Origin: an uncultured Chloroflexia bacterium
GTDB taxonomy: Bacteria > Chloroflexota > Limnocylindria > Limnocylindrales > CSP1-4
Length of the DNA: 64,000 nt
Direction of reading: 5' to 3'
NCBI GenBank assembly: GCA_963791725.1
Contig: CAWBTQ010000008.1
Span: forward strand, 360,359-424,358
The notes beneath the pieces are model-generated. The model was not told the DNA's origin and did no database searches. It saw only the letters and a program-made list of their open reading frames with translations. The position numbers and the translations under genes are program-made. Positions 4,004 through 46,469 of this stretch are shown here, one piece after another (within the stretch, counting starts at the first letter, position 1; the number at the start of each line of letters is the position of its first letter).

Positions 4004-5449
4004 TCAAACCTGGGCGCCGGTCTCTCCGATCGACAGCAGCCGGCGAACGGCCCGTCGGTCCAGCTTGCCCGTGCCAAGGCGGGGAACTTCCCGTACACGG
4101 ACGATGGCGACCGGCGCCTTGAATCCGGCCAGCCGGCCGCGGCAGTAGACCAGGATCTCTTCGTCCGTCGCCGCCGCACCCGGGCGAATGGCCACGGCGG
4201 CGACCGGGACGGCGCCCCATGTCCGGTCCGGTCGGCCGGCAACGCCCGCGTCTACGATGGCCGGGTGGCTTGTGAGTACCGCCTCGACCTCGGCCGGGTA
4301 GACGTTCTCGCCGCCGGAGACGATGAGGTCCAGGCGTCGGTCCGCGACGACCAGGTAGCCGCCCGCGTCGACGCTGCCGAGGTCGCCGGTCCCATACCAG
4401 CCATCGGCGTCGAACGACGCCTCGGTTTCGGCCCGATGGCCGACGTAACCGGAGAAGAGGCTCGGCCCCCTTATCTCGATCTCGCCGACGCCGTCGTCTG
4501 AGGGGCGCGCGATCCGCAGCTCAACGCCCGGCAACGCTCTACCGGAGGAGGCGGGCCTGGCTGCGGCCTCGGCCGTCGCCAGGGCGGTAACGCCCGATGC
4601 GGACTCGGTCATGCCGTAGGTCGGAACCAGCGGCCATCCGAGCGCCAGCGCCCTGGAGACGAGACCGGGATCGATCGGGCCGCCTCCGAGCAAGGCTGCC
4701 CGCAGGTTCGACGGGGCCGGCGCGGAGCCGGCTTCGTCGAGCAGTCGGGCGAGCTGCACCCCCACCACAGAAACGTGACTGACGGGCGGCTGGCACGCCG
4801 CGCGCAGGAGTGAGGCGGCGTCGCCCGCAGACGGGATCACCACCGGTACACCAGCCATGGCCGCTCGCCAGACGATCCCGAGTCCGCCGACGTGGGCGAG
4901 CGATAGGGAAGCGAGCCAGCCGGTCGCCCCCGGAAGGAAGTCGTTCCAGGCGGCGGCGCTTGCCGCCATCTGGCGGTGCGTGATGAGGGCGACTTTCGGC
5001 CTGCCGGTCGTGCCCGAGCTGGCGACGATGACGGCCGGGTCGCCTGGGACCGCGGTCCCCGGTCGCGGCATGGCCGCGGGCCATTCCGCCAGCGCCTCGA
5101 GCGAGAGGGCCGGGCGACCGAGCAGACCGGCCCGGACGGTCATTTCCCGCGACGCCACTACGGCAGCCGCGCCGGCATCGGCCAGGATCCGGTCCAATTC
5201 GGCGGTGGCCAGCCGCGTGTTGAGGGGCACGACGGCGGCACCCGAGCGTCCGGCGCCGTACAAGAAGGCTATGGCCGCCGCACTCGTGCGGGCAAGCAGC
5301 GCGACCCGGCTGCCCGGGATGATGCCCGCGTCGGTCAATCCCGCGGCAACCGCATCGGCTCGGGCGTCCAGCTCGCGCCAGGTCCATCTCAGCGTGCCGT
5401 CGATTACGGCCGGAGAGCCGGCCCGATCCAACGCGTTGACGCGCCCCAC
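4004..5449 (-). CDS. menE: o-succinylbenzoate-CoA ligase (AMP-binding)
   Basis: C-terminal 480 aa of the 882-aa track ORF carries the adenylate-forming motifs SSGTTGRPK, YGMTE and GWYGTGDLG...GENVYP. A GTG start near 5449 follows the menC stop at 5497. Confidence 0.8.
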   Translation of the reverse strand: MGRVNALDRAGSPAVIDGTLRWTWRELDARADAVAAGLTDAGIIPGSRVALLARTSAAAIAFLYGAGRSGAAVVPLNTRLATAELDRILADAGAAAVVASREMTVRAGLLGRPALSLEALAEWPAAMPRPGTAVPGDPAVIVASSGTTGRPKVALITHRQMAASAAAWNDFLPGATGWLASLSLAHVGGLGIVWRAAMAGVPVVIPSAGDAASLLRAACQPPVSHVSVVGVQLARLLDEAGSAPAPSNLRAALLGGGPIDPGLVSRALALGWPLVPTYGMTESASGVTALATAEAAARPASSGRALPGVELRIARPSDDGVGEIEIRGPSLFSGYVGHRAETEASFDADGWYGTGDLGSVDAGGYLVVADRRLDLIVSGGENVYPAEVEAVLTSHPAIVDAGVAGRPDRTWGAVPVAAVAIRPGAAATDEEILVYCRGRLAGFKAPVAIVRVREVPRLGTGKLDRRAVRRLLSIGETGAQV

Positions 5450-5496
5450 CGACGGCAAGGGGCGGATGGTCGGCTCGGGGCGGCCGATCTTGCCGC

Positions 5497-6601
5497 TCAC
5501 GAGTTGGGTGCCATCCGCTCCACCGTGTAGCGCCTGAGGGCCTCCTCGTCGAGGAGGGCGTTCTCGCGCAGCGCCATGCGGCCATCCAGCACCGGGGTTG
5601 GTACCCGCAGAAGATCGTGGACCAGGAAGGCGGCCGTGGCGAGACCGTGGGCGCGTTCCGGCCCAACCCGAGGGAGGCCGGCCGCGGCTCGAACGGCCGC
5701 GCCGGTCCCGATGCCCGTCTCCAGGAAGGTGCTGAGTACCACCGGCACGCCGACGCTGGCGGCGCGGGCGGCGATCTCTCGAACGACCGCCGGCCCGCCG
5801 ACCCGGGCCGGCTTTACGACCAGCACGTCGGCCGCTTCGGCGGATAGCACGGCGGCGGCGGCCGCGGAGGAAATCGATGGACTCGTCGAGGGCTATCGGA
5901 ACGGCGGATCCGCGCCGGAGTCGAGCGTGACCATCGAGTTCCTCCGGCGCCAGCGGCTGCTCGACGTACTCGATCGCGAAGGCGGCTATGGCCTCGAGGC
6001 GCTCCACCGCCATCGCCAGATCCCAGCTGCAGTTGGCGTCGAGTCGGAGCCCCACCGGCGCGCCAACGGCGGCCCTCACGGCCGCGACACGGTCGACCAG
6101 TGAGCCCACCGGCTCCGGACCGACCTTCAGCTTGATGCAGCGGAAGCCGTCGGCGGCAGCCCGTGCGGCAGCCGTCGCCGCCTCGTCGGGACCCATGACG
6201 TCCAGCGTTGCGTTGACGGCCACCGACCCGGCTCGACACGGGTCCGGCGCGCCCGCCTGGGCGGCTCGCGACAGCGCCTCCAGGGCCCCGTCCAGGCCGG
6301 CTCGAACCGCCCGCGATTCCGGCTCCGCATGGTCGCGGCGGTTCCAATCGGGAAGCCGCCCGACCGCCACGATTCCCAGCGCATCGCGCAAGACCTCCGT
6401 CAGCCGCCGCTCCTGGCCGCTCGATGCCGACGGATCCAGGGCGATCTCGCCCCAGCCGGCCCTTCCCTGGCCGTCGAACAGCCGCAGGATCCACGAGCGG
6501 CGCACCGTGACGATGCCTCGAGCGGTCGCGAACGGCCGCCGGAACGGCACGCACACGTGGAACGCCTCGGCCTGAAGCGCCGATGGAAGACGGACGTCCA
6601 C
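5497..6601 (-). pseudogene. menC: o-succinylbenzoate synthase MenC, interrupted by an apparent -1/+1 frameshift in a GCC repeat near 5848-5865
   Basis: N-terminal enolase-superfamily part (to ...IALDESIDFL) is in the frame of ORF 4004..6652. The C-terminal part (VLSAEAADVLVVKPARVGG...) is ORF 5497..5850 in another frame. The join falls in ggcggcggcggccgcgg. Could be a sequencing indel rather than a true pseudogene. Confidence 0.6.
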
Positions 6602-6605
6602 CCGG

Positions 6606-7526
6606 CTACCGGCCCAGCGCCAGGCCGATCGCGAACAGGACCGCGAAGCCAAGCGTCAGCATGGCGGTCCCTCGCAAGACCGAATTGAGCCGTCGCGGAT
6701 CGCCCTGACCGTAGACGGTCCGCAGGAGCGGGAGTGCCACCGGAACGGTCAGGAGCGGCAGCAAGGCCGCCGGCCCGGCTCCGAGCGAGGCGTCGGCCGA
6801 CCGCGCCGCCACCAGCCCCACCGGCACGATCCAGGCGAGGATGAGGCAGGCCGCGTACTCCGCCCTGGCAAAGGACTCACCGAATGTCACGGCCAGCGTC
6901 CGCTTGCCGGCCGCCCTGTCGGTCGTCGTGTCGCGCAGGTTGTTGATCACGAGGATCCCCGTCGTCAGGGTGCCGATCGGTACCGCGGCCAGGGCGTAGA
7001 GCGCTTCCACCCGGCCCGACTGGAGCTCGGCCGTTCCGACGACGGCCGCGAGGCCGAAGAACATGAAGACAAAGACTTCTCCCAGACCGCGGTAGCCGTA
7101 GGGGAATGGACCTCCCGTGTAGCCGAGCAGGGCCAGGATCGCGGCGGCGCCGAGCACCAGGATCGCCGGGCCGCCGACCACGGCCAGCCACAGGCCGACT
7201 GCGGCGGCGACGGCCAGAACCAGGACGATGCCGGCCTGGAGCTGGCGATCCGTCACCAGACCGGCCGCCGCGACCCTGGTCGGGCCCAACCGGTCAGCGT
7301 TGTCGGCTCCTCTCCGGAAGTCCGACAGATCGTTGGCCAGGTTGGCCGCAATCTGGAGAAGAAGGGCCACGGCCGCGCATCCGAGAGCCGTGTCCGGGCG
7401 GAACGCGGCGCCCGTCGCCAGGGCGGCTCCCAGTCCGACAACGACGCCGCTGACCGAGGCCGGCAGAGTCGCCGGGCGGATGGCGAGCAGCCAGGTATGC
7501 AGGCTCGGAGGCGAAGCGAAGCTCAT
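6606..7526 (-). CDS. menA: 1,4-dihydroxy-2-naphthoate polyprenyltransferase (UbiA family)
   Basis: An internal ATG at 7526 gives a 306-aa multi-TM UbiA-family protein with NDxxD-type motifs ([10 protein letters not shown]). Its start overlaps the menB stop as ATGA. Confidence 0.85.
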
Positions 7527-8347
7527 GGCCGCCGCGGAAAGCGCGAGAAGTCCGGCTTGCGCTTCTCGAGGAAGGCCTTCGAGCCTTCGGCCGCTTCCTC
7601 GGTCGTGTAGTAGAGACCCGTGGCGTTGCCGGCCAGCTCCTGCAGGCCGGCCAGACCGTCGGTCGAGGCGAGGAAGGAAGCCTTGAGGAAGCGGATGGCG
7701 GTCGGGCTCATGGCCAGGATCTCGTCCGCCCAGGCCACGCCCTCGGCCTGCAATGTAGCTAGCGGTACGACCTTGTTCACGAGGCCCATCGCCAGCGCTT
7801 CCTGGGCCGTGTACTGCCGGCACAGGAACCAGATCTCGCGGGCCTTCTTGTCGCCGACGAGGCGGGCCAGCAGCCCGACCCCGAAGCCGGCATCGAAGCT
7901 GCCGACGCGGGGCCCGACCTGCCCGAAGACGGCGTTCTCGCCCGCGATGCTCAGATCGCAGACGACGTGCAGGACGTGGCCGCCGCCGATGGCGTAGCCG
8001 TTCACTAGTGCGATCACGGGGATGGGGAGGGAACGAATCTGCCGCTGCAGGTCGAGGACGTTCAGGCGGGCGATGCCGTCGCCGCCAACGTACCCGCCGC
8101 GGCCTCGGACGTTCTGATCGCCGCCGGCGCAGAAGGCCACGTCGCCGGCTCCGGTGAGGAGAACGCAGCCGATCGAGGCGTCGTCGCGGATCTGGTAGAA
8201 GGCGTCGATCAACTGCTGGACCGTCTCCGGCCTGAAGGCGTTGCGGACGCGCGGTCGATTGATCGTGACCCGGGCGATCCCGGTGCCCGAATGCTCGTAG
8301 AGGATGTCGCTGTACTCGGCGACCGGCGTCCAGGTGGTAGTGGCCAT
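7523..8347 (-). CDS. menB: 1,4-dihydroxy-2-naphthoyl-CoA synthase (crotonase fold)
   Basis: The 274-aa sequence carries the MenB signatures ...[15 protein letters not shown]...KVVP... and the C-terminal KRKPDF. Confidence 0.9.
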
Positions 8348-9190
8348 TCAGGAGTCCTCCTGCGAGCTTGTACGGGACGCTCGAGGCGCCGCAATGAATG
8401 ACAGGACGAGCGAGCGGAAGACGGCCGGCTTCTCGAGGTGAGTTGCATGGCCGGCGCCTTCGATGAGTTCGAGCCGGGCCCCCGGGATGCCGGCCGCGAC
8501 GACCTCCGCCCGCCCCCGAACGGGGTCCAACGCGCCGCAGAGCACGAGCGTCGGCGCCACGACCTCACGCAGGCGGTCGTGCAGCGGTTCCATGACGCCC
8601 TGGCCGGCGCCGCGAAGGCTTCCCGCCAGGCCCCGGGCGCGGTTGCGGAGCCGCTCGGCATGGAGTCGCCTCCGAGTTGAATCCGGCAGTGCGGCTTGCG
8701 TCGCGAAGAGCGGCAGACTCTCCCAGCGGGCGACGAAATTCGGCATTCCATCCCGTTCGATGGCATCGGCGAGGGCTTCATCGGCGGCGCGGCGCGCCGA
8801 CCGCTCGGACGGATCGGCGATGCCGGCGGACGGGCTCTCCAGGACGAGCCGCCGGACGGCCGGCGGGTGGCCGATGGCGAGAGCCAGGGCCACGCGGGCC
8901 CCGAACGAATAGCCGATTACGTCGGCGGGTCGGCCGGCGACCCGGCGGAGGATGTCGGCCAGGTCGGCCGCCTGTCTGGCGGGCGCGTGCCGGGCCGCAT
9001 CCGCCGGCGCGTCGGACCGGCCGTGGCCGAGCAGGTCGACCTGGATCGTCGTCGCCACGCGCCTCAGGGCCGGCAGGTGAGGCGCCCAGGCCGCGCCCCG
9101 GCCGGTGAAGCCGTGCAGGAGGAGAAGTGGCCGTCCACTCCCTCCCAGGCGAACCTCGTAGCGAACGCCGTCGACCTGCAGCCGGGTCAC
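8348..9190 (-). CDS. menH: 2-succinyl-6-hydroxy-2,4-cyclohexadiene-1-carboxylate synthase (alpha/beta hydrolase)
   Basis: Alpha/beta hydrolase with LLLLHGFTG and GYSFGARVA (nucleophile elbow). It sits between menD and menB with overlapping start and stop codons. Confidence 0.75.
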   Translation of the reverse strand: MTRLQVDGVRYEVRLGGSGRPLLLLHGFTGRGAAWAPHLPALRRVATTIQVDLLGHGRSDAPADAARHAPARQAADLADILRRVAGRPADVIGYSFGARVALALAIGHPPAVRRLVLESPSAGIADPSERSARRAADEALADAIERDGMPNFVARWESLPLFATQAALPDSTRRRLHAERLRNRARGLAGSLRGAGQGVMEPLHDRLREVVAPTLVLCGALDPVRGRAEVVAAGIPGARLELIEGAGHATHLEKPAVFRSLVLSFIAAPRASRTSSQEDS

Positions 9191-11031
9191 GGCCGGGTTT
9201 CTCCGCCCGCAAGCTCTTCCAATCTCGCGGCAACGGCGGCCGCTGCCTCACGATGGAGGACCGCGTTCCTGGCCCGGTCGGTCCGGACCTCGAGCACCCG
9301 GACGCCCGCGGCTCCGACCGATCCGGCCAGTGCGGAACGCAGGTCACCGACCCTCACCAACGCATGCTCGGCTCCGAGGGCCCGCACGATCGGCCCGAAA
9401 TCAACTCCGTGCGGAGTGCCGAACAGCGTCTCGTAGGCCTCGGGCAGCCCAACACCCGGATCGACCGTGGACGCCTGCGGCAGGAAGGAGAAGACCCCAC
9501 CGCCGTCGTTGTTGACGAGGACGATCGTCGCGGACAGGTGGTGCAGCCGCGCTGCCACGAGGGCGTTGAGGTCATGCAGAAACGAGAGGTCGCCGACGAC
9601 GAGGACGACAGCACCGGTCTGCGCCGCCGCGGCGCCGAGCGCGCTCGACACGACCCCGTCGATCCCGTTCGCGCCGCGATTGGAGCAGCAACGGATGGCC
9701 CGTGGTCCGGTCGGGAGATAGGCGTCCATGTCGCGCACCGGCATCGAGCTGCCGGCCCAGAGGACTCCACCGTCGGGCATCAGGTCGGCGAGGAGCGTGA
9801 AGGGGCGAGGCTCGAGAGGCTCGGCCACAACCGCCGGGTCATCAAGCCAGGCCGCAAGTGTGTCGCTCGCGATCCGGTCGGCCGACAACCAGTCGGCTGT
9901 CCAGTTCGACGCCGTCTCCGCGGCCTTCGGCGTGCCCATGCGAGCCAGCGCCCCAGCCAGGCCGTCGGCAAAGGCGACCTCGTCGGCGTGGATGAAGGTC
10001 GCGGGCAGGAGGGCCGGTTCTCTCCAGCCACCCCCGCCATCTACAACGAGCAGCGCCGGTCGAGCCAGACGGAGCATCTCCAGGATTGGCTTCGAGGTGG
10101 GCATGGCGCCGAATCGGATCACCATCTCCGGGCGATGGGCATCGATCCAGCGTCCCGGCCGCGCGATCAGGTCGCCCCGCGCGATCACGCGTGAACGGTC
10201 GTGGGGCCCCAGGCGCATCTGCGAGAGGGGGTCGGCCAGGATCGGGTAACCGGTCATGGCGGCGAGCCGCGCCGCCGCTTCCGGGAAAGCCGGATCTTCC
10301 TGCGGGCCGGCCACGATGAGTCCGCGCTCGATCGCGGCCAGCCTGGCGGCCAGAGTTCTCAGGTCATCGGGCGAAAGTGTGGGCCTGCCTTCGAGGGCGT
10401 CGGCGAAGGGAGCACCCGGCCCCTCAAGAACCGCGCGGTCGCGAGGATCGTCGGCGAGCGGCCCGAGCGAACCGCGAGGGATGAGCGGCTCCCTGAGCTG
10501 GAAGTTCAGGTGGACGGGCCCGCGTGGAACCGCCAGCGAGGTCGCAACAGCACGGCCGGCGAGAGCCCGGATATAGGCGAGTAGATCCGGCGCGGCCTCG
10601 AGGACCGGCACGTCGACGAACCACTTGACTTGCGTCCCGTAGAGGCGAACCTGGTCGATCGTCTGGGCGGCGCCGCGATCGCGCAGCTCGGGCGGTCGGT
10701 CGGCGGTCAGCAGGACGAGCGGGACGCGGCCGTGGAAGGCCTCCACGACGGCCGGCGCCAGGTTTACCGCCGCGGTCCCGGAGGTGCACAGGACGGCGAC
10801 CGGCCGGCGGCTGGCGCGGGCCATCCCCAGAGCGAAGAAGCCCGCCGCGCGCTCGTCCAGCAGGACGCGGCAGCGGAGCCCGGGATGGGCGTGCATGGCC
10901 AGGGCCAGCGGTGTCGATCGCGATCCAGGGCAGATCACGACATCCCCCACGCCGGCCCGGGCCAGCTCCTCGACGAAGGCTCGCAGCGGATCGGCGATGC
11001 TCAGATCGGCCTCGGCCGGCATGTCGTTCAT
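9187..11031 (-). CDS. menD: 2-succinyl-5-enolpyruvyl-6-hydroxy-3-cyclohexene-1-carboxylate synthase (ThDP-dependent)
   Basis: Internal ATG MNDMPAEADL... gives a 614-aa ThDP enzyme with the GDLSFLHDLN motif, as in MenD. It overlaps the menF stop and the menH start. Confidence 0.85.
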   Translation of the reverse strand: MNDMPAEADLSIADPLRAFVEELARAGVGDVVICPGSRSTPLALAMHAHPGLRCRVLLDERAAGFFALGMARASRRPVAVLCTSGTAAVNLAPAVVEAFHGRVPLVLLTADRPPELRDRGAAQTIDQVRLYGTQVKWFVDVPVLEAAPDLLAYIRALAGRAVATSLAVPRGPVHLNFQLREPLIPRGSLGPLADDPRDRAVLEGPGAPFADALEGRPTLSPDDLRTLAARLAAIERGLIVAGPQEDPAFPEAAARLAAMTGYPILADPLSQMRLGPHDRSRVIARGDLIARPGRWIDAHRPEMVIRFGAMPTSKPILEMLRLARPALLVVDGGGGWREPALLPATFIHADEVAFADGLAGALARMGTPKAAETASNWTADWLSADRIASDTLAAWLDDPAVVAEPLEPRPFTLLADLMPDGGVLWAGSSMPVRDMDAYLPTGPRAIRCCSNRGANGIDGVVSSALGAAAAQTGAVVLVVGDLSFLHDLNALVAARLHHLSATIVLVNNDGGGVFSFLPQASTVDPGVGLPEAYETLFGTPHGVDFGPIVRALGAEHALVRVGDLRSALAGSVGAAGVRVLEVRTDRARNAVLHREAAAAVAARLEELAGGETRP

Positions 11032-12575
11032 GACCGGAACTCGCCCAGCGCGGAGGCGACGACCTGCATCTTGTTGCTCGATTCTTCCCACTCGCGGCCC
11101 GGATCCGAATCGGCCACGATGCCGCAGCCAGCGAACAGCGCTGCATTGCGGCCCGAGACGACGGCGCAGCGCAGGGCTACTACGAACTCACCGTCGCCGT
11201 CGGCTCCCACCCAGCCAAGGGGACCGGCATACCAGCCACGTTCGAAGCCCTCGTGTTGAGAGATGAGATCGAGCGCGAGCGCCCGGGGCTCGCCTCCGAC
11301 CGCCGGTGTTGGGTGGAGGAGCGCGGCGAGGCTCAAGATACCGGCCCGGTTGCGCAGGCGCCCGGTCACCGTGGTCACGAGGTGCTGGACCGTCCCGAAG
11401 GTGGCCACGACCGGGGCTGCAGCGATGTGGATCTCCGCAGCAACCGGGTCGAGCATCGCGCGCAGCATCTCCACGACGATCTCGTGCTCCTCTCGATCCT
11501 TGTCGCTGGACAGCAGCTCGGCCGCCAGGGCTGCCTCCTCGACGGCGTCGTCAGCGTGTCGGATCGATCCGGCGATGGCGACCGTCTGGAATTCCTTGCC
11601 CTGCGTTGAGATCAGACGCTCCGGCGTCGCGCCGAGGAAGACGCTGCCGCCGCGGGCGATCGCGTAGGTCGTCGAGGTCGGGGAGCCGGTCGCGAGCCTT
11701 CTCAGAGCAGACACGGCGTCTATGTCCACCGCGGAGCTCAGATCTAGCCGCCTGGCCAGGACGACCTTGTCCAACCGGCCGCGCCCGACTGCACCGGCGA
11801 AGCGATCCACCAGCCGGTCCCAGGTCTGCCGGTCGGGACGCTCTCCCTCGATCGAGAGTCGTACCCGGTCCGTTGCAGCCTCGGAAGATGCGGCGTCGGC
11901 GGTCGATCGAGCCACCAGGTCGACCCAGAGTCGGTCCAGTCGATCGGGCGAATCGAATTCGCCGGGCTTCGAGCCGCCGCCCTCCTCGGAGGCCATGAAG
12001 GACGTCGTGAGCCAGCCGCCCGCCGGGGTCTGAAGCAGCAGGATCTCGGGCACGCACATCGAGGCGGCGCCGAAGGGAGACCACGCCGCGTCCGCCGGTG
12101 GCTCGCCCGTGAAGCCGAGGCCGCCGATCAGCAAGGGACCGAGCGCGCGACCGTCCGAGCCGTCGCCCCGGAGCCGCGCGCCGGCCAGCAGCCGCTCCCA
12201 AGCATCTGCGATCGTCCGAAATCGTTCCGGACCGCATCCTCGGATCGACCAGGCCCGGCCGATGCCAACCATGGCCAACCCGTCGGCCGGCTGCAACCAC
12301 AGCGACGGTTCCAGGCCCGAGCGCAACGCAGCCGCGAACAGGGCGACCGGATCGAGCGCCGGCGACGAGCCCAGGCCGAAGGTGGCGCTGACCAACCCGC
12401 CGGCGACGTCGTTGCCGGCCTCGCCATCCGGGCGCTCCAACAGCGACCTCGTCACGGCCGAGATCGGCGGCGGCACCGTTCCCCCGCAGCCGGCCGGCCG
12501 GGCCGGCGCCCGGGCCGCGCCAGGGGCTCCGCCCACCACGGTCACCGAGACCGGACCGCGGCCAGGCGGTGCCAC
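11028..12575 (-). CDS. menF: isochorismate synthase
   Basis: Chorismate-binding-enzyme C-terminus (...GGSVFLGATPERL...AGILSLAALLHPTPAVGG...WYAGPLGW). The annotated start overlaps the tetR stop by 34 nt, so the true start is probably downstream. Confidence 0.8.
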   Translation of the reverse strand: MAPPGRGPVSVTVVGGAPGAARAPARPAGCGGTVPPPISAVTRSLLERPDGEAGNDVAGGLVSATFGLGSSPALDPVALFAAALRSGLEPSLWLQPADGLAMVGIGRAWSIRGCGPERFRTIADAWERLLAGARLRGDGSDGRALGPLLIGGLGFTGEPPADAAWSPFGAASMCVPEILLLQTPAGGWLTTSFMASEEGGGSKPGEFDSPDRLDRLWVDLVARSTADAASSEAATDRVRLSIEGERPDRQTWDRLVDRFAGAVGRGRLDKVVLARRLDLSSAVDIDAVSALRRLATGSPTSTTYAIARGGSVFLGATPERLISTQGKEFQTVAIAGSIRHADDAVEEAALAAELLSSDKDREEHEIVVEMLRAMLDPVAAEIHIAAAPVVATFGTVQHLVTTVTGRLRNRAGILSLAALLHPTPAVGGEPRALALDLISQHEGFERGWYAGPLGWVGADGDGEFVVALRCAVVSGRNAALFAGCGIVADSDPGREWEESSNKMQVVASALGEFRS

Positions 12576-37544: not shown

Positions 37545-39242
37545 CTAGAGGGCCCGGACGGTGGCTCCACCATCGACCAGCACCCCTCCCTCGCTTCCTC
37601 CAAGGACTTCGTTGTGGTCGAGCGTGGCAGTTGCGCCATCGGCCACCCAGATGCCCGGGCGGCGGGAGTTCTCGACGGTGTTGCGCTCGATCACTGCAGA
37701 CACCCCGGGATCAGAGACCGTGATGGCGCCTCCCCCGTTACCGGACAGCCGGTTCGCGATGATCTCAGCCGACGCGCCGTCGTGGACATAGATTTCTTCA
37801 CTGGCATTGTCCCGAAGGGTGTTCTCGCGTAGAACGGCGTGGGTGCCCGCTCCCACGACCGTGATCGCCGGTTGGTCGTTCTTCCATATCTCGTTGCCCT
37901 CAAGGAGGGCTTCGGCGCCCGCGTGGATGGCGATCCCGTTGCTCCGGTTGTCGTGGACACGGTTGCGCAGCGCCTCGATGTGGCCGCCCATGGTCACGAT
38001 GCCGGGGTACGCATTCTCGAAGACGTCGTTCCCATCCAGAACTGCCTTTGCATCGGCGGCGATCGAAATGCCTGTTCCGCGGTTCCCGTACACACTGACC
38101 CCGCGCAGGACGAGGTCGGTGCCTGTCTTTTCCACAAAGACGCCCCCGTTTGCGCCACTGACCTCACCACCATCTGCCACGAGCCTCGCTCCGCCGCTGG
38201 CGAACAGCCCGAACTTCGCGGCGTCGCTCACCAGGCAGTCCCGCAAATCGAGCCTTGTCCCCTGTCCTACCGCCCGGACCCCGCAAGTTCCGCCGACGAT
38301 CGCGACCCCGGCAACCTTCGCGACGGCCCCTTCCGCCACGGCGAGACCGGTCTCGCTGGCCTCCAGACGCCCCCCCGAGACGTCTACGAAAGTGTCCGGA
38401 TCACCGGCGAAGATACCGACCACCGACGCCCGCACCACGTTGCCATTGCCCACGAACCGGCCGCCACCCCCGACCAGAACCCCCGCATCCGGGCATCCGC
38501 TGATCCTGCTCGCTCGAAGCTCGGCCGTCGACCCCTGATCGGCGACGAAAACGCCGACGCGTGTGTTCGCGAATTCGCATTTCTCGACGAGCGCTGCCCC
38601 GCCTTTGTCGACGTAGACCGGCTGTCCCCGACTGTCGCGGAAGGCGCAGCGTCGAATCTCTGCGCTGCTGGCTCGGCTTACCCAGAGGGCGTCGGAGATC
38701 CATTCCGAGAATTCACAGTCCTCGATCAAGCCCGTGGCACCACCGACGACCGCGATGCCCCCTGTAACGCGATGAACGCGGCTGCGGCGCACTTCAACAC
38801 GGGTGTCGGGCTTTCCCGTCATGATCGCGAAGCCGCTGGCGGCCGAGATCGAGCAGTCCTCGATCTGGAGCCGGCCCGCCCGAAGCTCGATCACAGCGAC
38901 CTTCGGCTCCCTCGTCGGCGGAATGGGCTCAGCCGCAGTTCCGCGGCCGACGAGACGTCCTAGCCCTCCCGCTTTCGGCTGGCCTTGCCATACCGTGAAA
39001 CCGCGAACGGTTACCGATCCCGCCGCCGTGACGCAGGTGCCGGTCCCCACGATCCGGACGGACCCTGGCGCTCCGTCGGCCACGAGCTCGAGATCGCGGT
39101 CGATAGCGACCAGTTCCTCATAGGTCCCGGGCCGGACGAGGATGCGACCGCCCGGTGCCGCCGCGGCGATCGCACTCGAGATCGTCCTGTGATCGGCCTG
39201 CCCAGTCTGGGCCACAACAGTCGTGACGACGCTGACGCCCAT
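37545..39242 (-). CDS. right-handed parallel beta-helix repeat protein (pectate-lyase/NosD-like fold), no obvious signal peptide
   Basis: A 565-aa protein with a characteristic start (...TISSAIAAAAPGGRILVRPGTYEE...), then more than 15 degenerate beta-helix repeats rich in G/N/V/D (...GNDVFENAYPGIVT...NRSNGIAIHAG...). Confidence 0.75.
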   Translation of the reverse strand: MGVSVVTTVVAQTGQADHRTISSAIAAAAPGGRILVRPGTYEELVAIDRDLELVADGAPGSVRIVGTGTCVTAAGSVTVRGFTVWQGQPKAGGLGRLVGRGTAAEPIPPTREPKVAVIELRAGRLQIEDCSISAASGFAIMTGKPDTRVEVRRSRVHRVTGGIAVVGGATGLIEDCEFSEWISDALWVSRASSAEIRRCAFRDSRGQPVYVDKGGAALVEKCEFANTRVGVFVADQGSTAELRASRISGCPDAGVLVGGGGRFVGNGNVVRASVVGIFAGDPDTFVDVSGGRLEASETGLAVAEGAVAKVAGVAIVGGTCGVRAVGQGTRLDLRDCLVSDAAKFGLFASGGARLVADGGEVSGANGGVFVEKTGTDLVLRGVSVYGNRGTGISIAADAKAVLDGNDVFENAYPGIVTMGGHIEALRNRVHDNRSNGIAIHAGAEALLEGNEIWKNDQPAITVVGAGTHAVLRENTLRDNASEEIYVHDGASAEIIANRLSGNGGGAITVSDPGVSAVIERNTVENSRRPGIWVADGATATLDHNEVLGGSEGGVLVDGGATVRAL

Positions 39243-39423: not shown

Positions 39424-40452
39424 TTAGTACCAGCCGACTCCGTTGCGGAACGCCAGAGCGGCACATGGCGATCCATAGCGGCCGATCATGTAGTCGACGC
39501 CCCACTCCGCCTGAGCCACCGGGTTATCCCGCCACGCTCGATACAGCCAGGCGGTTTCGGCATCGCCGGCCTTGCCCGCCGCCGCGGCCCTGGCCTCAGC
39601 CCAATTGGCCAGCTTGCTCGCCGGATTCGCCTGGGGCAGGCCGTAGGCGCCGCTGGTCTTGTTGACGGCGTGCGGATTCCATCGCGCCTCGTACTCGAAT
39701 ATCAGGCTGGCGCACTGAGACTGAGCCAGGCCCCAGCGCCTATCCACCCTCGTGCCCAATCGAGCGACCAGGTAATTCCTGGCGTCCTGGACCGTCGGAA
39801 TAGCCATCAACCCGACCGCAGATGCTGCCGCGAGGGGGGCGGCAGCCGGGATGGTCGATACCGGTTCCATCGCGATCACCACGGTGGACGAGGTAGCCTC
39901 CGGCGTCGGTTCCGGCGTCGGTTCCGGTGTCGGGCCCGAGGTCGCCGACGGCCGCTCGGTGATCGACGGAAGACTCGCCATCTGGGCCGTGTCGGCGGCG
40001 ACGATGGCTACCGGAGATCCACCGGCGGACAGACCACCGACGGGCACACGGTCGAGCGGCACGGCGCCGGCGGAGGCGGGTGGATTGACGGCCAGGGCCG
40101 AGCCGGCAACGACGACCGCGAGGAGAGCGGCGCATGCGCCGGCCTGCGAGATGCCCCGCAGGCGGTCGCCGAGAACGAGACTGCGGGCTTCAAGGCATCC
40201 GCGACCACGATACCGGGCAAGAGCCGCGAACTCCCCGTCGGGGATCGGGAATTCGATGCCCCACTGATCGAGCGCCTCGCGACGCTTCGGCGGCAACGTC
40301 GGGATCGAGAGGCGCCAGGCGGAAATGGCTCCGGTAAGGTTCGACGATGTCGGCGCCACAAACTCATAGGGATCATCGGGTAGCAGCGGGAATTGGATAC
40401 CCCATTGGTCAAGGGCATCGAGAGACGACCGCGAGGCCGCAGTTTGGCGCAT
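39424..40452 (-). CDS. membrane-anchored protein with N-terminal DQWGI(Q/E)FP tandem repeats, one TM helix, a TPEPTPEP linker and a C-terminal IsaA/SceD-like lytic transglycosylase domain
   Basis: Two N-terminal repeats (LDALDQWGIQFPLLPDDPYEF / REALDQWGIEFPIPDGEFAAL) conserved at the peptide level, with synonymous DNA differences. TM segment GACAALLAVVVAGSALA. C-terminus CASLIFEYEARWNPHAVNKTSGAYGLPQA...WGVDYMIGRYGSP resembles the SLT-like domain with a catalytic Glu. Confidence 0.65.
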   Translation of the reverse strand: MRQTAASRSSLDALDQWGIQFPLLPDDPYEFVAPTSSNLTGAISAWRLSIPTLPPKRREALDQWGIEFPIPDGEFAALARYRGRGCLEARSLVLGDRLRGISQAGACAALLAVVVAGSALAVNPPASAGAVPLDRVPVGGLSAGGSPVAIVAADTAQMASLPSITERPSATSGPTPEPTPEPTPEATSSTVVIAMEPVSTIPAAAPLAAASAVGLMAIPTVQDARNYLVARLGTRVDRRWGLAQSQCASLIFEYEARWNPHAVNKTSGAYGLPQANPASKLANWAEARAAAAGKAGDAETAWLYRAWRDNPVAQAEWGVDYMIGRYGSPCAALAFRNGVGWY

Positions 40453-41349: not shown

Positions 41350-42801
41350 ATGGGCGCGGACGATCCGCAGCGGATCTTCACCGGAATCGCGGCGTCGTAC
41401 GACCGCGTGGCGACGATCCTGTCGCTCGGGCAGGATCCGCGATGGAGGCGTGCCCTTGTCGATGCGATCGAGGCGCGGCCAACGGACCGGGTTCTGGATG
41501 TCGCGACGGGTACCGGAATGGTGGCCGCGGCGCTGCACGCGAGATACGGCTGCTCGGTCGTCGGCGTGGATCAGAGCGCGGACATGCTGCGCGTGGCCCG
41601 AACTCGAGACGGCGTCTACGAGAGCGTCGTCGAAGGGCGCGCCGAGGAGCTGCCGTTTCCGGACGCGTCCTTCGACCACCTGACGTTCACGTACCTGCTG
41701 CGGTACGTCGAAGACCCCGCCGCCACGCTGCGTGAGCTGGCTCGAGTCGTGAAGCCGGGTGGTCGCCTGGCGATGGTGGAGTTCGGCCTGCCGGGCGGCC
41801 TCTGGCGCCCGCTGTGGTGGCTGTACACGCGCCTCGGCCTTCCGGTCGCCGGTCGCCTGGTCTCCGCCAGGTGGTCGGCTGTGGGTGCGTTCCTCGGGCC
41901 GAGCATCGAGCGCTTCTACCACCGCCATCCGCTCTCGGCGATCGAGCGCTATTGGGCCGAGGCCGGCCTCGTCGACGTACGGACCAGCCGGCCGAGTCTC
42001 GGCGGCGGTGTCGTCATGAGCGCGACCAGGGCCGATGCCCCGGCGACGCCGGCGGGCGTCGAATCGGCGCCCTCCCCTGCTCCGTCGCCACTCTCACCGG
42101 CGTTCTACGCGGCGCGTGGCGGCGGCTGGCGCGATTACTGGACGCTCCTGCATCCGCCATACACCGTGTGGCATCTCTCGTACGTGCTCCTGGGTGCGGC
42201 GCTGGCGCCCTCGCCCGACCCGAAGATCGTCGCGGGCGCGCTGCTGGCCTTCGGGCTGGCCGTCGGGGTCGCCTCACACTCCTTTGACGAACTACAAGGG
42301 CGTCCCCTGCGCACGCGGATCCCGTCGCCGCTTCTGGTTGCTCTCGGCACGGTGGCGCTCTTCGTGGCCGTCGCGATCGGGCTTGCGGGCGCGACGATGT
42401 TCGGTCCGCTCTTCCTGGTGTTCGTGATCGCCGGCGCGGCGATCGTGGTCCTCTACGGGTTCGAAGCCCCGCTCGTGCACTCGGACGTCGGGTTCGCGGT
42501 CGGTTGGGGAGCGTTCCCCGTGGCGGCGACCGCTTACGCGACAGGCGCGCATCCGGTTCCAGCGATCCTGGCCGCATTTGCCGCCGCTCTGCTGAGTCTG
42601 GCGCAGCGGCGGCTCTCCACTCGGGCGCGCTCGATCCGTCGTCGGGCCGTCAGCGTGAGCGGCGAGATCGTCTTTGCGGACGGGTCGAGGGAGTCGATCG
42701 ACGCGCGCGCGCTCATCGGCGCGGCCGAAGGAGCGCTCTCCATCTTGTGGATCGCGGTCTTCGCGGCCTCGCTCGCGGTACTGCTCGCACACTGGCTCTG
42801 A
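41350..42801 (+). CDS. demethylmenaquinone/ubiquinone methyltransferase (UbiE/MenG, class I SAM MTase) fused to a C-terminal polytopic membrane domain of about 230 aa
   Basis: N-terminal 240 aa: ...YDRVATILSLGQDPRWR...VLDVATGTGMVA...LPFPDASFDHLTFTYLLRYVED...VKPGGRLAMVEF. C-terminal half: at least six predicted hydrophobic helices (YWTLLHPPYTVWHLSYVLLGAALAP...). One continuous ORF with no frameshift. Confidence 0.75.
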   Translation: MGADDPQRIFTGIAASYDRVATILSLGQDPRWRRALVDAIEARPTDRVLDVATGTGMVAAALHARYGCSVVGVDQSADMLRVARTRDGVYESVVEGRAEELPFPDASFDHLTFTYLLRYVEDPAATLRELARVVKPGGRLAMVEFGLPGGLWRPLWWLYTRLGLPVAGRLVSARWSAVGAFLGPSIERFYHRHPLSAIERYWAEAGLVDVRTSRPSLGGGVVMSATRADAPATPAGVESAPSPAPSPLSPAFYAARGGGWRDYWTLLHPPYTVWHLSYVLLGAALAPSPDPKIVAGALLAFGLAVGVASHSFDELQGRPLRTRIPSPLLVALGTVALFVAVAIGLAGATMFGPLFLVFVIAGAAIVVLYGFEAPLVHSDVGFAVGWGAFPVAATAYATGAHPVPAILAAFAAALLSLAQRRLSTRARSIRRRAVSVSGEIVFADGSRESIDARALIGAAEGALSILWIAVFAASLAVLLAHWL

Positions 42802-43555: not shown

Positions 43556-43723
43556 CTGCCCTTGCTTGTGTGCCGCTTACTGCGTCCGCCGATCGGCGCC
43601 ACCCGGAGTGCACCTTGTGCAACGCATGCTACGCCCGGTCAGGGACTCGGCCGTCTCGTCCAAGATTCGCGGAGGCCGGCGACCGCCCGGTCTGAGCCAT
43701 TCGAGAGCGCAGGAGAGCGGAAC

Positions 43724-44284
43724 GTGGGCAAGCTGATCTACTTGATGAACGTGTCTCTCGACGGCTACGTCGAAACACCCGATCACTCACTCGATTGGAC
43801 GGAAGTCGACGAGGAGGTGCATACCTGGTTCACCGATCGCGGCCGAACGACGGACGCCTTCCTCTACGGTCGGCGGCTGTACGATGTGATGGCTGCCTAC
43901 TGGCCCCACGCAGAGTCCGAACCCTCGGTGACCCCCTACATGCTCGACTTCGCCCGGATGTGGAATGAGACGCCCAAGGTCGTCTTCTCGTCCACCCTCG
44001 CCTCCGTCGATTGGAACAGCCGGCTCGTACGCGGCGATGTCGGCGACGAGCTCGCACGGCTGCGGACCGAGTTCGACGGCGACCTCGCCGTCGGCGGCCC
44101 AACGCTGGCCTCGGAGTTCATCCGGCGGGGCCTGGTCGACGAATATCAACTGGTGGTCCACCCGGTGATCCTGGGGGCGGGCACGCCATTCTTCCCGACG
44201 CTCGAGCGTCCGATCAGACTCCGCCAGACGGAAACCCGGAAGTTCCGCTCCGGAGTGGTGTATCTGGGCTACGCCACGTCATAG
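43724..44284 (+). CDS. dihydrofolate reductase family protein (RibD C-terminal domain fold)
   Basis: A GTG with AGGAGA upstream gives VGKLIYLMNVSLDGYVE...GRRLYDVM...GDLAVGGPTLASEFIRRGLVDEYQLVVHPVILGAGTPFF. Confidence 0.8.
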   Translation: MGKLIYLMNVSLDGYVETPDHSLDWTEVDEEVHTWFTDRGRTTDAFLYGRRLYDVMAAYWPHAESEPSVTPYMLDFARMWNETPKVVFSSTLASVDWNSRLVRGDVGDELARLRTEFDGDLAVGGPTLASEFIRRGLVDEYQLVVHPVILGAGTPFFPTLERPIRLRQTETRKFRSGVVYLGYATS

Positions 44285-45914: not shown

Positions 45915-46469
45915 ATGCCACGCAGGCTGGTTGCGAGCACGTACGTTACCCTCGACGGCTACATCGATGAGCCCGGCGAATGGTCGTTCCCGTTCTGGTG
46001 CGAAGAGGCCGCCCAGTTCAAGTCGAAGGAGCTGTTCGCCAGCGACATCCTGTTGCTCGGTCGACTCACCTATGAGGGTTTCTCCTCCGCGTGGCCCACG
46101 ATGAAGGGTACGGGCGAGTTCGGCGAGAAGATGAACAGCATGCCCAAATACGTGGCCTCACGAACCCTCCAGACGGCGACCTGGAACTCCACGATCATCA
46201 AAGGTGACGTCGCGGAGGAGGTTCGAAGGCTCAAGGCGGCCGCTGGCGGGGACATCCTCATCGGCGGCAGCGGCCAGCTCATCGACTTCCTCACCGGACA
46301 GCATCTCATCGACGAATACCGGCTGATGGTCCACCCGATCGTGCTCGGCTCGGGCACCAAGAGGCTCTTCAATACCGCCCCGCGGCGCACCCTTACGCTC
46401 GTCGATAGCGTGCGCTTTCCAACCGGCACCGTCGTCAACACGTATCGGCCGCGGCCTGGATCGCCTTGA
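45915..46469 (+). CDS. dihydrofolate reductase family protein (RibD C-terminal domain fold), paralog of 43724..44284
   Basis: MPRRLVASTYVTLDGYIDEP...GRLTYEGF...GDILIGGSGQLIDFLTGQHLIDEYRLMVHPIVLGSGTKRLF, with GGAGGAGCCAGGAG upstream. The two copies share clearly recognisable similarity. Confidence 0.8.
   Translation: MPRRLVASTYVTLDGYIDEPGEWSFPFWCEEAAQFKSKELFASDILLLGRLTYEGFSSAWPTMKGTGEFGEKMNSMPKYVASRTLQTATWNSTIIKGDVAEEVRRLKAAAGGDILIGGSGQLIDFLTGQHLIDEYRLMVHPIVLGSGTKRLFNTAPRRTLTLVDSVRFPTGTVVNTYRPRPGSP

Follow-up and report, generated by a model that had tools for sequence, protein, structure and literature searches.

The gene at positions 41350..42801 (+) of a 64,000-nucleotide stretch of contig CAWBTQ010000008.1, from an uncultured bacterium of the Limnocylindria (Chloroflexota; assembly GCA_963791725.1; this whole stretch is called the window below), encodes a UbiE/Coq5-type methyltransferase that continues in one open reading frame (ORF) into a membrane module predicted to adopt a UbiA-like fold. 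Its product may best be read as a prenylquinol C-methyltransferase that is bound to the membrane and built of two modules. The substrate would probably be demethylmenaquinol, and the UbiA-derived module would bind and present this lipid; a probability of about 0.5 is given to this reading. The fusion is the Limnocylindria version of a widespread pair of coupled genes, and the module looks like a UbiA/MenA paralogue that has become the dedicated partner of a methyltransferase of the Coq5 type.

The fusion gene and its methyltransferase half

The ORF comprises 483 codons plus a stop codon. It starts with ATG, and inspection of the upstream sequence revealed a GAGG Shine-Dalgarno-like element immediately 5' of this codon. 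According to the ORF list, neither a stop codon nor a frameshift is present in the sequence of 41350..42801. The GC content at third codon positions is 0.85 in the N-terminal and 0.84 in the C-terminal half, and the GC content per codon position is equal in both. When approximately 5.8 billion proteins were searched with the full fusion, at least 120 representatives of clusters were obtained, with lengths of 473-578 aa, a query coverage of 96-100 % and an identity of 76-85 %. They originate from JGI, ENA, NCBI, and Logan assemblies, and the ones carrying a name belong to metagenome-assembled genomes (MAGs) of 'Candidatus Limnocylindrales' (Chloroflexota). The two halves are joined by a Pro/Ala-rich linker, aa 224-250 (42019..42099, +), for which the predicted local distance difference test score (pLDDT) drops below 50 at aa 232-242 in a model of the full-length protein. 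Neither the sequence nor the length of the linker is conserved among the fusion homologues, and it occupies the position at which the stop and start codons overlap in the loci where the two halves are encoded separately.

As at least 120 clusters from independent assemblies carry the fusion at full length, it is real and conserved in Limnocylindria and is no frameshift artefact. The initial annotation, made from the sequence of the window alone, had described a methyltransferase and a polytopic membrane domain within one ORF, and this uninterrupted arrangement is now borne out by all these clusters. An error of assembly, or a frameshift joining two neighbouring genes, is an explanation that hardly deserves credence: in most lineages two genes are present that overlap by 4-20 nt, and a single indel would be enough to fuse them, but the same full-length protein was recovered by different assembly efforts and pipelines with an in-frame linker of 25-30 aa, 15 genome loci also have the fused form, and the codon statistics are uniform along the gene.

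The first 223 residues (41350..42018, +) form a UbiE/Coq5-type S-adenosylmethionine (SAM)-dependent C-methyltransferase domain. Pfam PF01209 (UbiE/COQ5) matches aa 7-223 with an E-value of 2.9e-32 and 112.3 bits, against a cutoff of 20.1, and the match extends over profile positions 10-227 of 233. The stretch VKPGGRLAMVEF, quoted in the initial annotation, is present in the ORF. SAM-binding motif I can be read from the sequence as VLDVATGTG (aa 48-56; 41491..41517, +), the residues L49, D50, G54, and G56 of which show little or no variation in the alignments of the methyltransferases. The best solved relative, both by sequence profile and by fold, is yeast Coq5 (PDB 4obw), which is also the only one of the compared structures that aligns across the UbiE-specific N-terminal and lid regions. 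Arg118, located in the motif LLRYVxDP (codon at 41701..41703, +), aligns with Arg201 of Coq5: the profile reads 'LlRYvdd' over the Coq5 sequence 'FGIRNFTD', the Arg of which has chain index 151 and residue number 201. Y17 and R118 are invariant in the 35 sequences of alignment A2, where they are placed over 'RYD' and 'GIRN' of Coq5 as the equivalents of Tyr78 and Arg201. In the part of PMC5289526 that cites Dai et al. (2014), Coq5 Arg201 is named as the proposed general base.

The curated models for narrower groups are all missed. The subfamily model TIGR01934 (MenG/MenH/UbiE) gives 148.5 bits with the methyltransferase half (cutoff 158.35), and the scores for the equivalogs NF001241, NF001244, and TIGR02752 are 140.6, 142.7, and 101 bits (cutoffs 327, 216, and 419.85, respectively). 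The protein is therefore not a certified MenG. The best NCBIfam matches of this enzyme and of its counterparts elsewhere are all quinone C-methyltransferases, and the N-terminal half is assigned to the Coq5/UbiE-type prenylquinol C-methyltransferases, as a sister subfamily to the curated MenG/UbiE groups. The earlier proposal of MenG thus stands as far as the UbiE/Coq5 type is concerned; with each of the curated MenG/UbiE cutoffs missed, the more specific name is one that we infer.

A membrane module with a UbiA-like fold

The C-terminal module, aa 251-483 (42100..42798, +), belongs to a family that has not been described before. When scanned with the Pfam and NCBIfam models, the C-terminal half did not return a match, a search of the PDB sequences with the profile of the module yielded only noise, and the module had no tblastn match in collections of plasmids and phages. 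HMMER, run exhaustively against 1.84 billion representatives, retrieved 1,013 relatives, mostly free-standing proteins of ~240-270 aa, and a profile search of a larger collection gave at least 7,721 clusters (at 90 % identity) with E <= 1e-10. All names among the best 120 matches of the module read 'hypothetical protein'. In one relative, the 368-aa P0285 from an ENA contig of 3.2 kb, residues ~55-171 are repeated almost verbatim; this internal duplication is probably an assembly artefact.

An AlphaFold2 model of the module, based on the 30 sequences of alignment A1, has a pLDDT of 95.3 and a predicted template modelling score (pTM) of 0.89, and contains seven transmembrane (TM) helices and a cytoplasmic β-hairpin. 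The polytopic nature noted before is thus retained, with the count of at least six helices corrected to seven predicted ones. Foldseek with this model ranked UbiA-type proteins first, with modest scores (E ~3e-3, TM-score ~0.5). The Pfam family UbiA (PF01040) does not match the module of the window protein, while 12 of the 30 relatives match it below its threshold of 34.2 bits, the best with 29.1 bits and an E-value of 7.4e-07. These matches are co-linear from TM1 onwards and span profile positions 5-189 of 250; the best one, in P0151, starts at the residues DRPL of the motif equivalent to HSFDELQGRPL. Comparison of the profile of the module with the MenA protein encoded in the window using hhalign gave a probability of 5 %, which is not significant, so the residue equivalences with UbiA given below were taken from the co-linear coordinates of the Pfam matches and from inspection.

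Nine TM helices are typical of UbiA enzymes, as are the motifs NDxxDxxxD, YxxxK, and DxxxD (PMC6461227). The most conserved motif of the module family, HSFDELQGRPL (aa 310-320; 42277..42309, +), is situated at the cytoplasmic end of TM2, in the place of the first Asp-rich motif of UbiA. Among 48 representatives, H310 is conserved in 98 %, D313 in 94 %, E314 in 92 %, and R318 in 79 %, and P319 and L320 vary little if at all. The UbiA sequence NDxxDxxxD...RPL is replaced here by HxxDELxGRPL, by which one Asp and one Glu are kept and the loop is ~9 aa shorter. Upstream of it, in TM1, alignments A1 and A3 revealed the motif LLHPPYTVWHL (aa 266-276; 42145..42177, +), in which 90 % of these representatives have H268 and 85 % have H275. 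A third conserved segment in the alignments, YGFEAPLVHSD (aa 369-379; 42454..42486, +), covers the end of TM4 and the loop between TM4 and TM5; almost no exceptions occur at Y369, E372, and H377, and D379 is conserved in 69 %. A low-confidence hhalign alignment sets Y369 over 'lgYtgg' of the MenA from the window, and this residue is probably the Tyr of the YxxxK motif, the Lys of which would have been lost (the module reads YxxE).

The alignments also revealed an Arg cluster in the cytoplasmic half of TM6, QRRLSTRARSIRRR (aa 419-432; 42604..42645, +). R420, R427, R430, and R431 are conserved in 92-94 %, Q419 and S423 are conserved as well, and the stretch can be written as QRxLSTxARxxRR. No conserved acidic column is present between aa 380 and 459 of the module in the 48 representatives, and the Arg cluster would be the positional equivalent of the second Asp-rich motif, DxxxD. 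The conserved charged residues (H268, H275, H310, and H377; D262, D313, E314, E372, and D379; R318, R420, R427, and R430-432) are all located on the predicted cytoplasmic face.

Taken together, the module is very probably a remote and truncated homologue of the UbiA-type intramembrane prenyltransferases. Judged by its sequence it is not classed as a UbiA prenyltransferase itself, because every sequence-level defining feature of that family fails. The initial annotation had named a UbiA-like protein among the candidates for the C-terminal half, which agrees with the weak Pfam UbiA matches and the UbiA-like fold, and had drawn attention to the conserved-looking HSFDELQGRP loop, rightly so in view of the conservation described above. 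It had also seen in this half a membrane tether; the membrane location is upheld, and in place of an anonymous tether there is a remote, truncated UbiA-type homologue without the catalytic Asp-rich motifs.

Pairing across genomes and genomic context

A scan of one genome per species, covering 185,579 species, showed that a relative of the module is encoded in at least 572 of these genomes. The carriers belong to the Chloroflexota (Limnocylindria, Dehalococcoidia), the Actinomycetota (Acidimicrobiia, Solirubrobacterales, Gaiellales, Streptosporangiaceae), and the Dormibacterota. Pairing was counted in 80 loci retrieved from these genomes, and six further contexts were added. In all of the 80 loci the module is either fused to a UbiE-type methyltransferase or directly preceded by a gene for one on the same strand. 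Fifteen loci are clearly fused, essentially of the Limnocylindria/Chloroflexota type, and 65 were scored as split. The start of the module gene overlaps the stop of the methyltransferase gene by 4-20 nt in 59 of the latter 65; 35 of these overlaps have the 8-nt form RTGnnTGA and 10 the 4-nt form RTGA. Since start and stop codons overlap, the split pair is translationally coupled. In divergent lineages the pair was also recovered by gene calls made independently, and among the long members of the module family the methyltransferase is the only recurrent fusion partner. The pairing thus looks obligate. To the question of whether orthologs are fused or split, which had been raised earlier, the answer is both: they are fused in Limnocylindria and present as a coupled split pair in other lineages. 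The architecture is widespread, then, but not a known or characterised one; it fits no curated family or publication, in agreement with the earlier statement that it could not be matched to any characterised protein. Two of the six further contexts, L092 and L094, are short contigs. In L092:148-4342 a member of the module family lies amid genes without recorded Pfam entries, and the unannotated genes around the module in L092 and L094 have no match in PHROGs.

The wider surroundings of the pair were considered as a possible conserved multi-gene pathway cluster, which was rejected, as the neighbours are lineage-specific. Although lineage-specific, the neighbourhoods carry an isoprenoid/quinone flavour. 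A gene of the geranylgeranyl-reductase family is divergently adjacent in 18 loci of the Acidimicrobiaceae type (L014:3947-5320 and 17 others); its product scores above the cutoff of TIGR02032, and of the more specific models MenJ comes closest, with 137 bits where 700 are required. In 10 loci (L055:6735-7250 and nine others) an SRPBCC/START-like gene lies next to the pair in convergent orientation, often with a 4-nt overlap. One actinobacterial group has the genes for an MpaB/Lcp-like oxygenase, a HAD phosphatase, the methyltransferase, and the module in a row on the same strand. In an actinobacterial lineage with a GC content of 36.5 % the pair is located between ctaC-ctaD-ctaF, specifying COX2, COX1, and subunit IV of an aa3 oxidase, and qcrCAB-ctaE. 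These respiratory-chain neighbourhoods were seen at L081:3038-14310 and L087:3416-17230, where CtaG is also encoded.

The window contains, separate from the fusion gene, an operon menF-menD-menH-menB-menA-(menC-like)-menE at 4004..12575 (-). The genes menF, menD, menH, and menB were identified by NCBIfam, as were menA (291.4 bits, cutoff 264) and menE (330.3 bits, cutoff 330.15), and a MenC-like domain of the enolase superfamily (MR_MLE_C) is also encoded in the operon. The earlier statement that the organism makes menaquinone on account of a men operon at 4-12.6 kb is thereby sustained, with menC in the form of this MenC-like domain. A single 882-aa ORF without an in-frame stop at 4004-6652 (-) specifies the MR_MLE_C MenC-like domain followed by MenE; this may be a fusion of MenC and MenE, or else two genes may share a frame by chance. 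The men operon at 4.0-12.6 kb does not include a menG, and a second UbiE-type gene is not present within the 64-kb window. The MenA protein carries the canonical Asp-rich motifs. The possibility that the module serves as the MenA of the organism was rejected because the window has its own canonical MenA.

The immediate neighbours of the fusion gene in the window are unrelated to it. Upstream, a 565-aa right-handed β-helix/NosD-like protein is encoded at 37545-39242 (-) and a 342-aa protein with a domain resembling the C-terminus of aggregation-promoting factors at 39424-40452 (-); both are probably cell-surface proteins without a relation to the fusion gene. Two paralogues with a RibD_C domain, at 43676-44281 (+) and 45915-46466 (+), are located within 2.5 kb of each other and flank an aldo-keto reductase gene and a gene of the deazaflavin-dependent nitroreductase family.

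Proposed mechanism, alternatives, and known systems

The analyses show what the two halves are, that the module has lost the Asp-rich motifs, that the pairing looks obligate, and that a canonical MenA exists apart from the fusion. From these findings we infer the substrate, the docking of the two halves, and the presenting role of the module. The cytoplasmic Coq5/UbiE-type half would carry out the SAM-dependent ring methylation of a polyprenyl quinol, which in this menaquinone-making organism is most probably demethylmenaquinol, as in the MenG reaction. The module would keep the ancestral UbiA fold, with a shortened cap loop and a central cavity that opens to the cytoplasm. It would anchor the methyltransferase and bind the membrane-embedded prenylquinol in this cavity, in such a way that the head group is held at the conserved His/Asp/Glu/Tyr/Arg site on the cytoplasmic face, beneath the active site of the methyltransferase. 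The two would function as separate, translationally coupled subunits in most lineages and as one fused protein in Limnocylindria. Prenyl transfer by the module has probably been lost, because the Asp-rich motifs that bind Mg2+ and diphosphate are gone.

Several observations weigh against this proposal. The module has retained four His, four to five acidic, and five Arg residues, which is more than a passive binding site requires, and this conservation looks catalytic or metal-binding. The partner methyltransferases of seven split loci score 124-154 bits on TIGR01934 (cutoff 158.35), and together with the window enzyme 108-141 bits on the actinobacterial MenG equivalog NF001241 (cutoff 327). 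Owing to these scores below the cutoffs, the methyltransferases may be paralogues instead of housekeeping MenG enzymes, and MAGs labelled Streptosporangiaceae that contain the pair would be expected to hold a canonical MenG as well. Three of the six further contexts (L091, L092, and L094) lack an adjacent methyltransferase gene. In the first of these (L091:578-3367) the module gene overlaps a gene for a prenyl diphosphate synthase of the farnesyl/geranylgeranyl diphosphate type by 1 nt and is followed by a geranylgeranyl-reductase-family gene, and a UbiE-type methyltransferase gene is not adjacent. The module in question is an orthodox family member with all conserved residues, and the locus is an alternative partnership that bears on the function of the module. 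The full-length AlphaFold2 model combines a pLDDT of 89 with a pTM of only 0.62; in it, the linker residues 232-242 are disordered, and it does not define how the two domains pack. Finally, a literature search, which included the quinones of Limnocylindria, did not uncover a publication or curated model describing the module family, the pair, or the fusion.

Much of this would be accounted for if the module were an active enzyme with a non-canonical chemistry on a UbiA fold, acting as a prenyltransferase, a cyclase, or a phosphatase-like or metal-dependent enzyme. With the methyltransferase it would then make a distinct methylated prenyl lipid or a second quinone, apart from housekeeping menaquinone synthesis. 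H268, H275, H310, D313, E314, Y369, E372, H377, and R420/427/430/431 are conserved in the manner of an active site, the methyltransferase subfamily stays consistently under the MenG/UbiE cutoffs, and the window already holds a complete MenA. The coupling to a short-chain prenyl diphosphate synthase in L091 and the actinobacterial row with the oxygenase and the phosphatase also point in this direction. To our knowledge, every characterised enzyme of the UbiA superfamily depends on two Asp-rich Mg2+ motifs. Both of these motifs (PMC6461227) are absent from the module, which speaks against such an activity. So does the methyltransferase, which has kept the full Coq5/UbiE architecture and the catalytic residues and thereby indicates a prenylquinol substrate. 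The Actinomycetota and Chloroflexota are known to use menaquinones only, and the wider neighbourhoods, being lineage-specific, do not contain a conserved pathway cluster. An active enzyme is regarded as the main alternative, serious but doubtful; it is kept at this level because the scores below the cutoffs, contexts such as L091, and the enzyme-like conservation of the module weigh against the simplest MenG version of the proposal. In its most far-reaching form, which is put forward as a speculation, the module would represent a new catalytic class of the UbiA superfamily, in which a His/Asp/Glu site (possibly for a transition metal) and the Arg cluster replace the Mg2+ motifs. Such an enzyme would convert a polyprenyl substrate by a reaction of its own. 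Together with the Coq5-like methyltransferase it would give rise to a still undiscovered methylated prenylquinone or prenyl lipid, widespread among the Actinomycetota and Chloroflexota of soils.

A module that merely tethers a MenG-like enzyme to the membrane, with no specific ligand site, is improbable. The flexible and poorly conserved linker, the interdomain packing left unresolved by the model, and the disappearance of the canonical UbiA catalytic motifs would suit a passive anchor, but some 15 invariant polar residues on one face have been kept across several phyla at 33-50 % identity, a seven-helix UbiA fold is needless for tethering, and the module persists without the methyltransferase in L091. 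It is equally hard to believe that the methyltransferase acts on something other than a quinol, for instance a prenyl diphosphate or a polyprenyl phosphate bound to the module, as Coq5 is clearly the best relative by profile and by structure, being the sole one to align over the UbiE-specific regions, and quinone C-methyltransferases make up all of the best NCBIfam matches.

It is only partly understood how MenG, UbiE, and other peripheral enzymes of quinone tailoring gain access to substrates that are extremely hydrophobic and buried in the membrane; in eukaryotes and proteobacteria the soluble lipid-presenting proteins COQ9 and UbiJ/K serve quinone tailoring. A substrate-presenting module, if true, would be a new solution to this substrate-access problem as well as a new example of a pseudo-enzyme or re-tooled enzyme in the UbiA superfamily. 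It would also allow a better annotation of thousands of genomes from lineages abundant in soil and freshwater (Acidimicrobiia, Thermoleophilia, Limnocylindria, Dormibacterota). If the module is catalytic instead, an unknown isoprenoid-quinone chemistry is indicated. In either case a very large family of membrane proteins without a Pfam or NCBIfam model has been defined, and its coupled genes in the species genomes of soil bacteria counted above point to an unstudied membrane-bound step in prenyl-quinone biosynthesis. Menaquinone biosynthesis is a drug target in Gram-positive pathogens, which makes partner-dependent variants of MenG of comparative interest. A Trm112-like partner has been predicted for mycobacterial MenG in a 2026 preprint.

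With Coq5, UbiE, and MenG, the methyltransferase half shares the class I SAM fold, the N-terminal motif Y-D-x-x-x-x-x-S-x-G-x-x-x-x-W-R, and the C-terminal lid, and the equivalent of Coq5 Arg201 is kept. It differs from them in that the canonical FG(L/I)RN(V/F)TD reads YLLRYV(E/D)DP, in scoring below the curated subfamily and equivalog cutoffs, and in having a dedicated membrane subunit, which is either fused to it or translationally coupled. We know of no report of such a subunit for a characterised UbiE, MenG, or Coq5. The module, in turn, appears to have its fold in common with MenA, UbiA, UBIAD1, AfUbiA (4tq3), ApUbiA (4od4), DGGGP synthase, and DPPR synthase. Compared with this superfamily it has seven helices instead of nine, HxxDE and a shorter TM2-3 loop in place of NDxxDxxxD, an Arg cluster where DxxxD would be, and no Lys in YxxxK, and it remains below the Pfam threshold.

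The closest concepts to the module may be found in two groups of partner proteins. Non-catalytic subunits with an isoprenoid synthase fold, such as HepS of heptaprenyl diphosphate synthase, the small subunit of GPP synthase, and the GGPPS-recruiting protein, are soluble and have a prenyl diphosphate synthase as their partner, whereas the module is membrane-integral, UbiA-derived, and paired with a methyltransferase, and its non-catalytic nature is putative. COQ9, UbiJ/UbiK, and the COQ10 START proteins of ubiquinone synthesis, and methyltransferase activators of the Trm112 type, resemble it in the role proposed here, in that they give a soluble quinone-tailoring enzyme access to a very hydrophobic substrate or activate it. 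These lipid presenters and activators have unrelated folds and are soluble or peripheral, in contrast to the module, which is a polytopic membrane protein.

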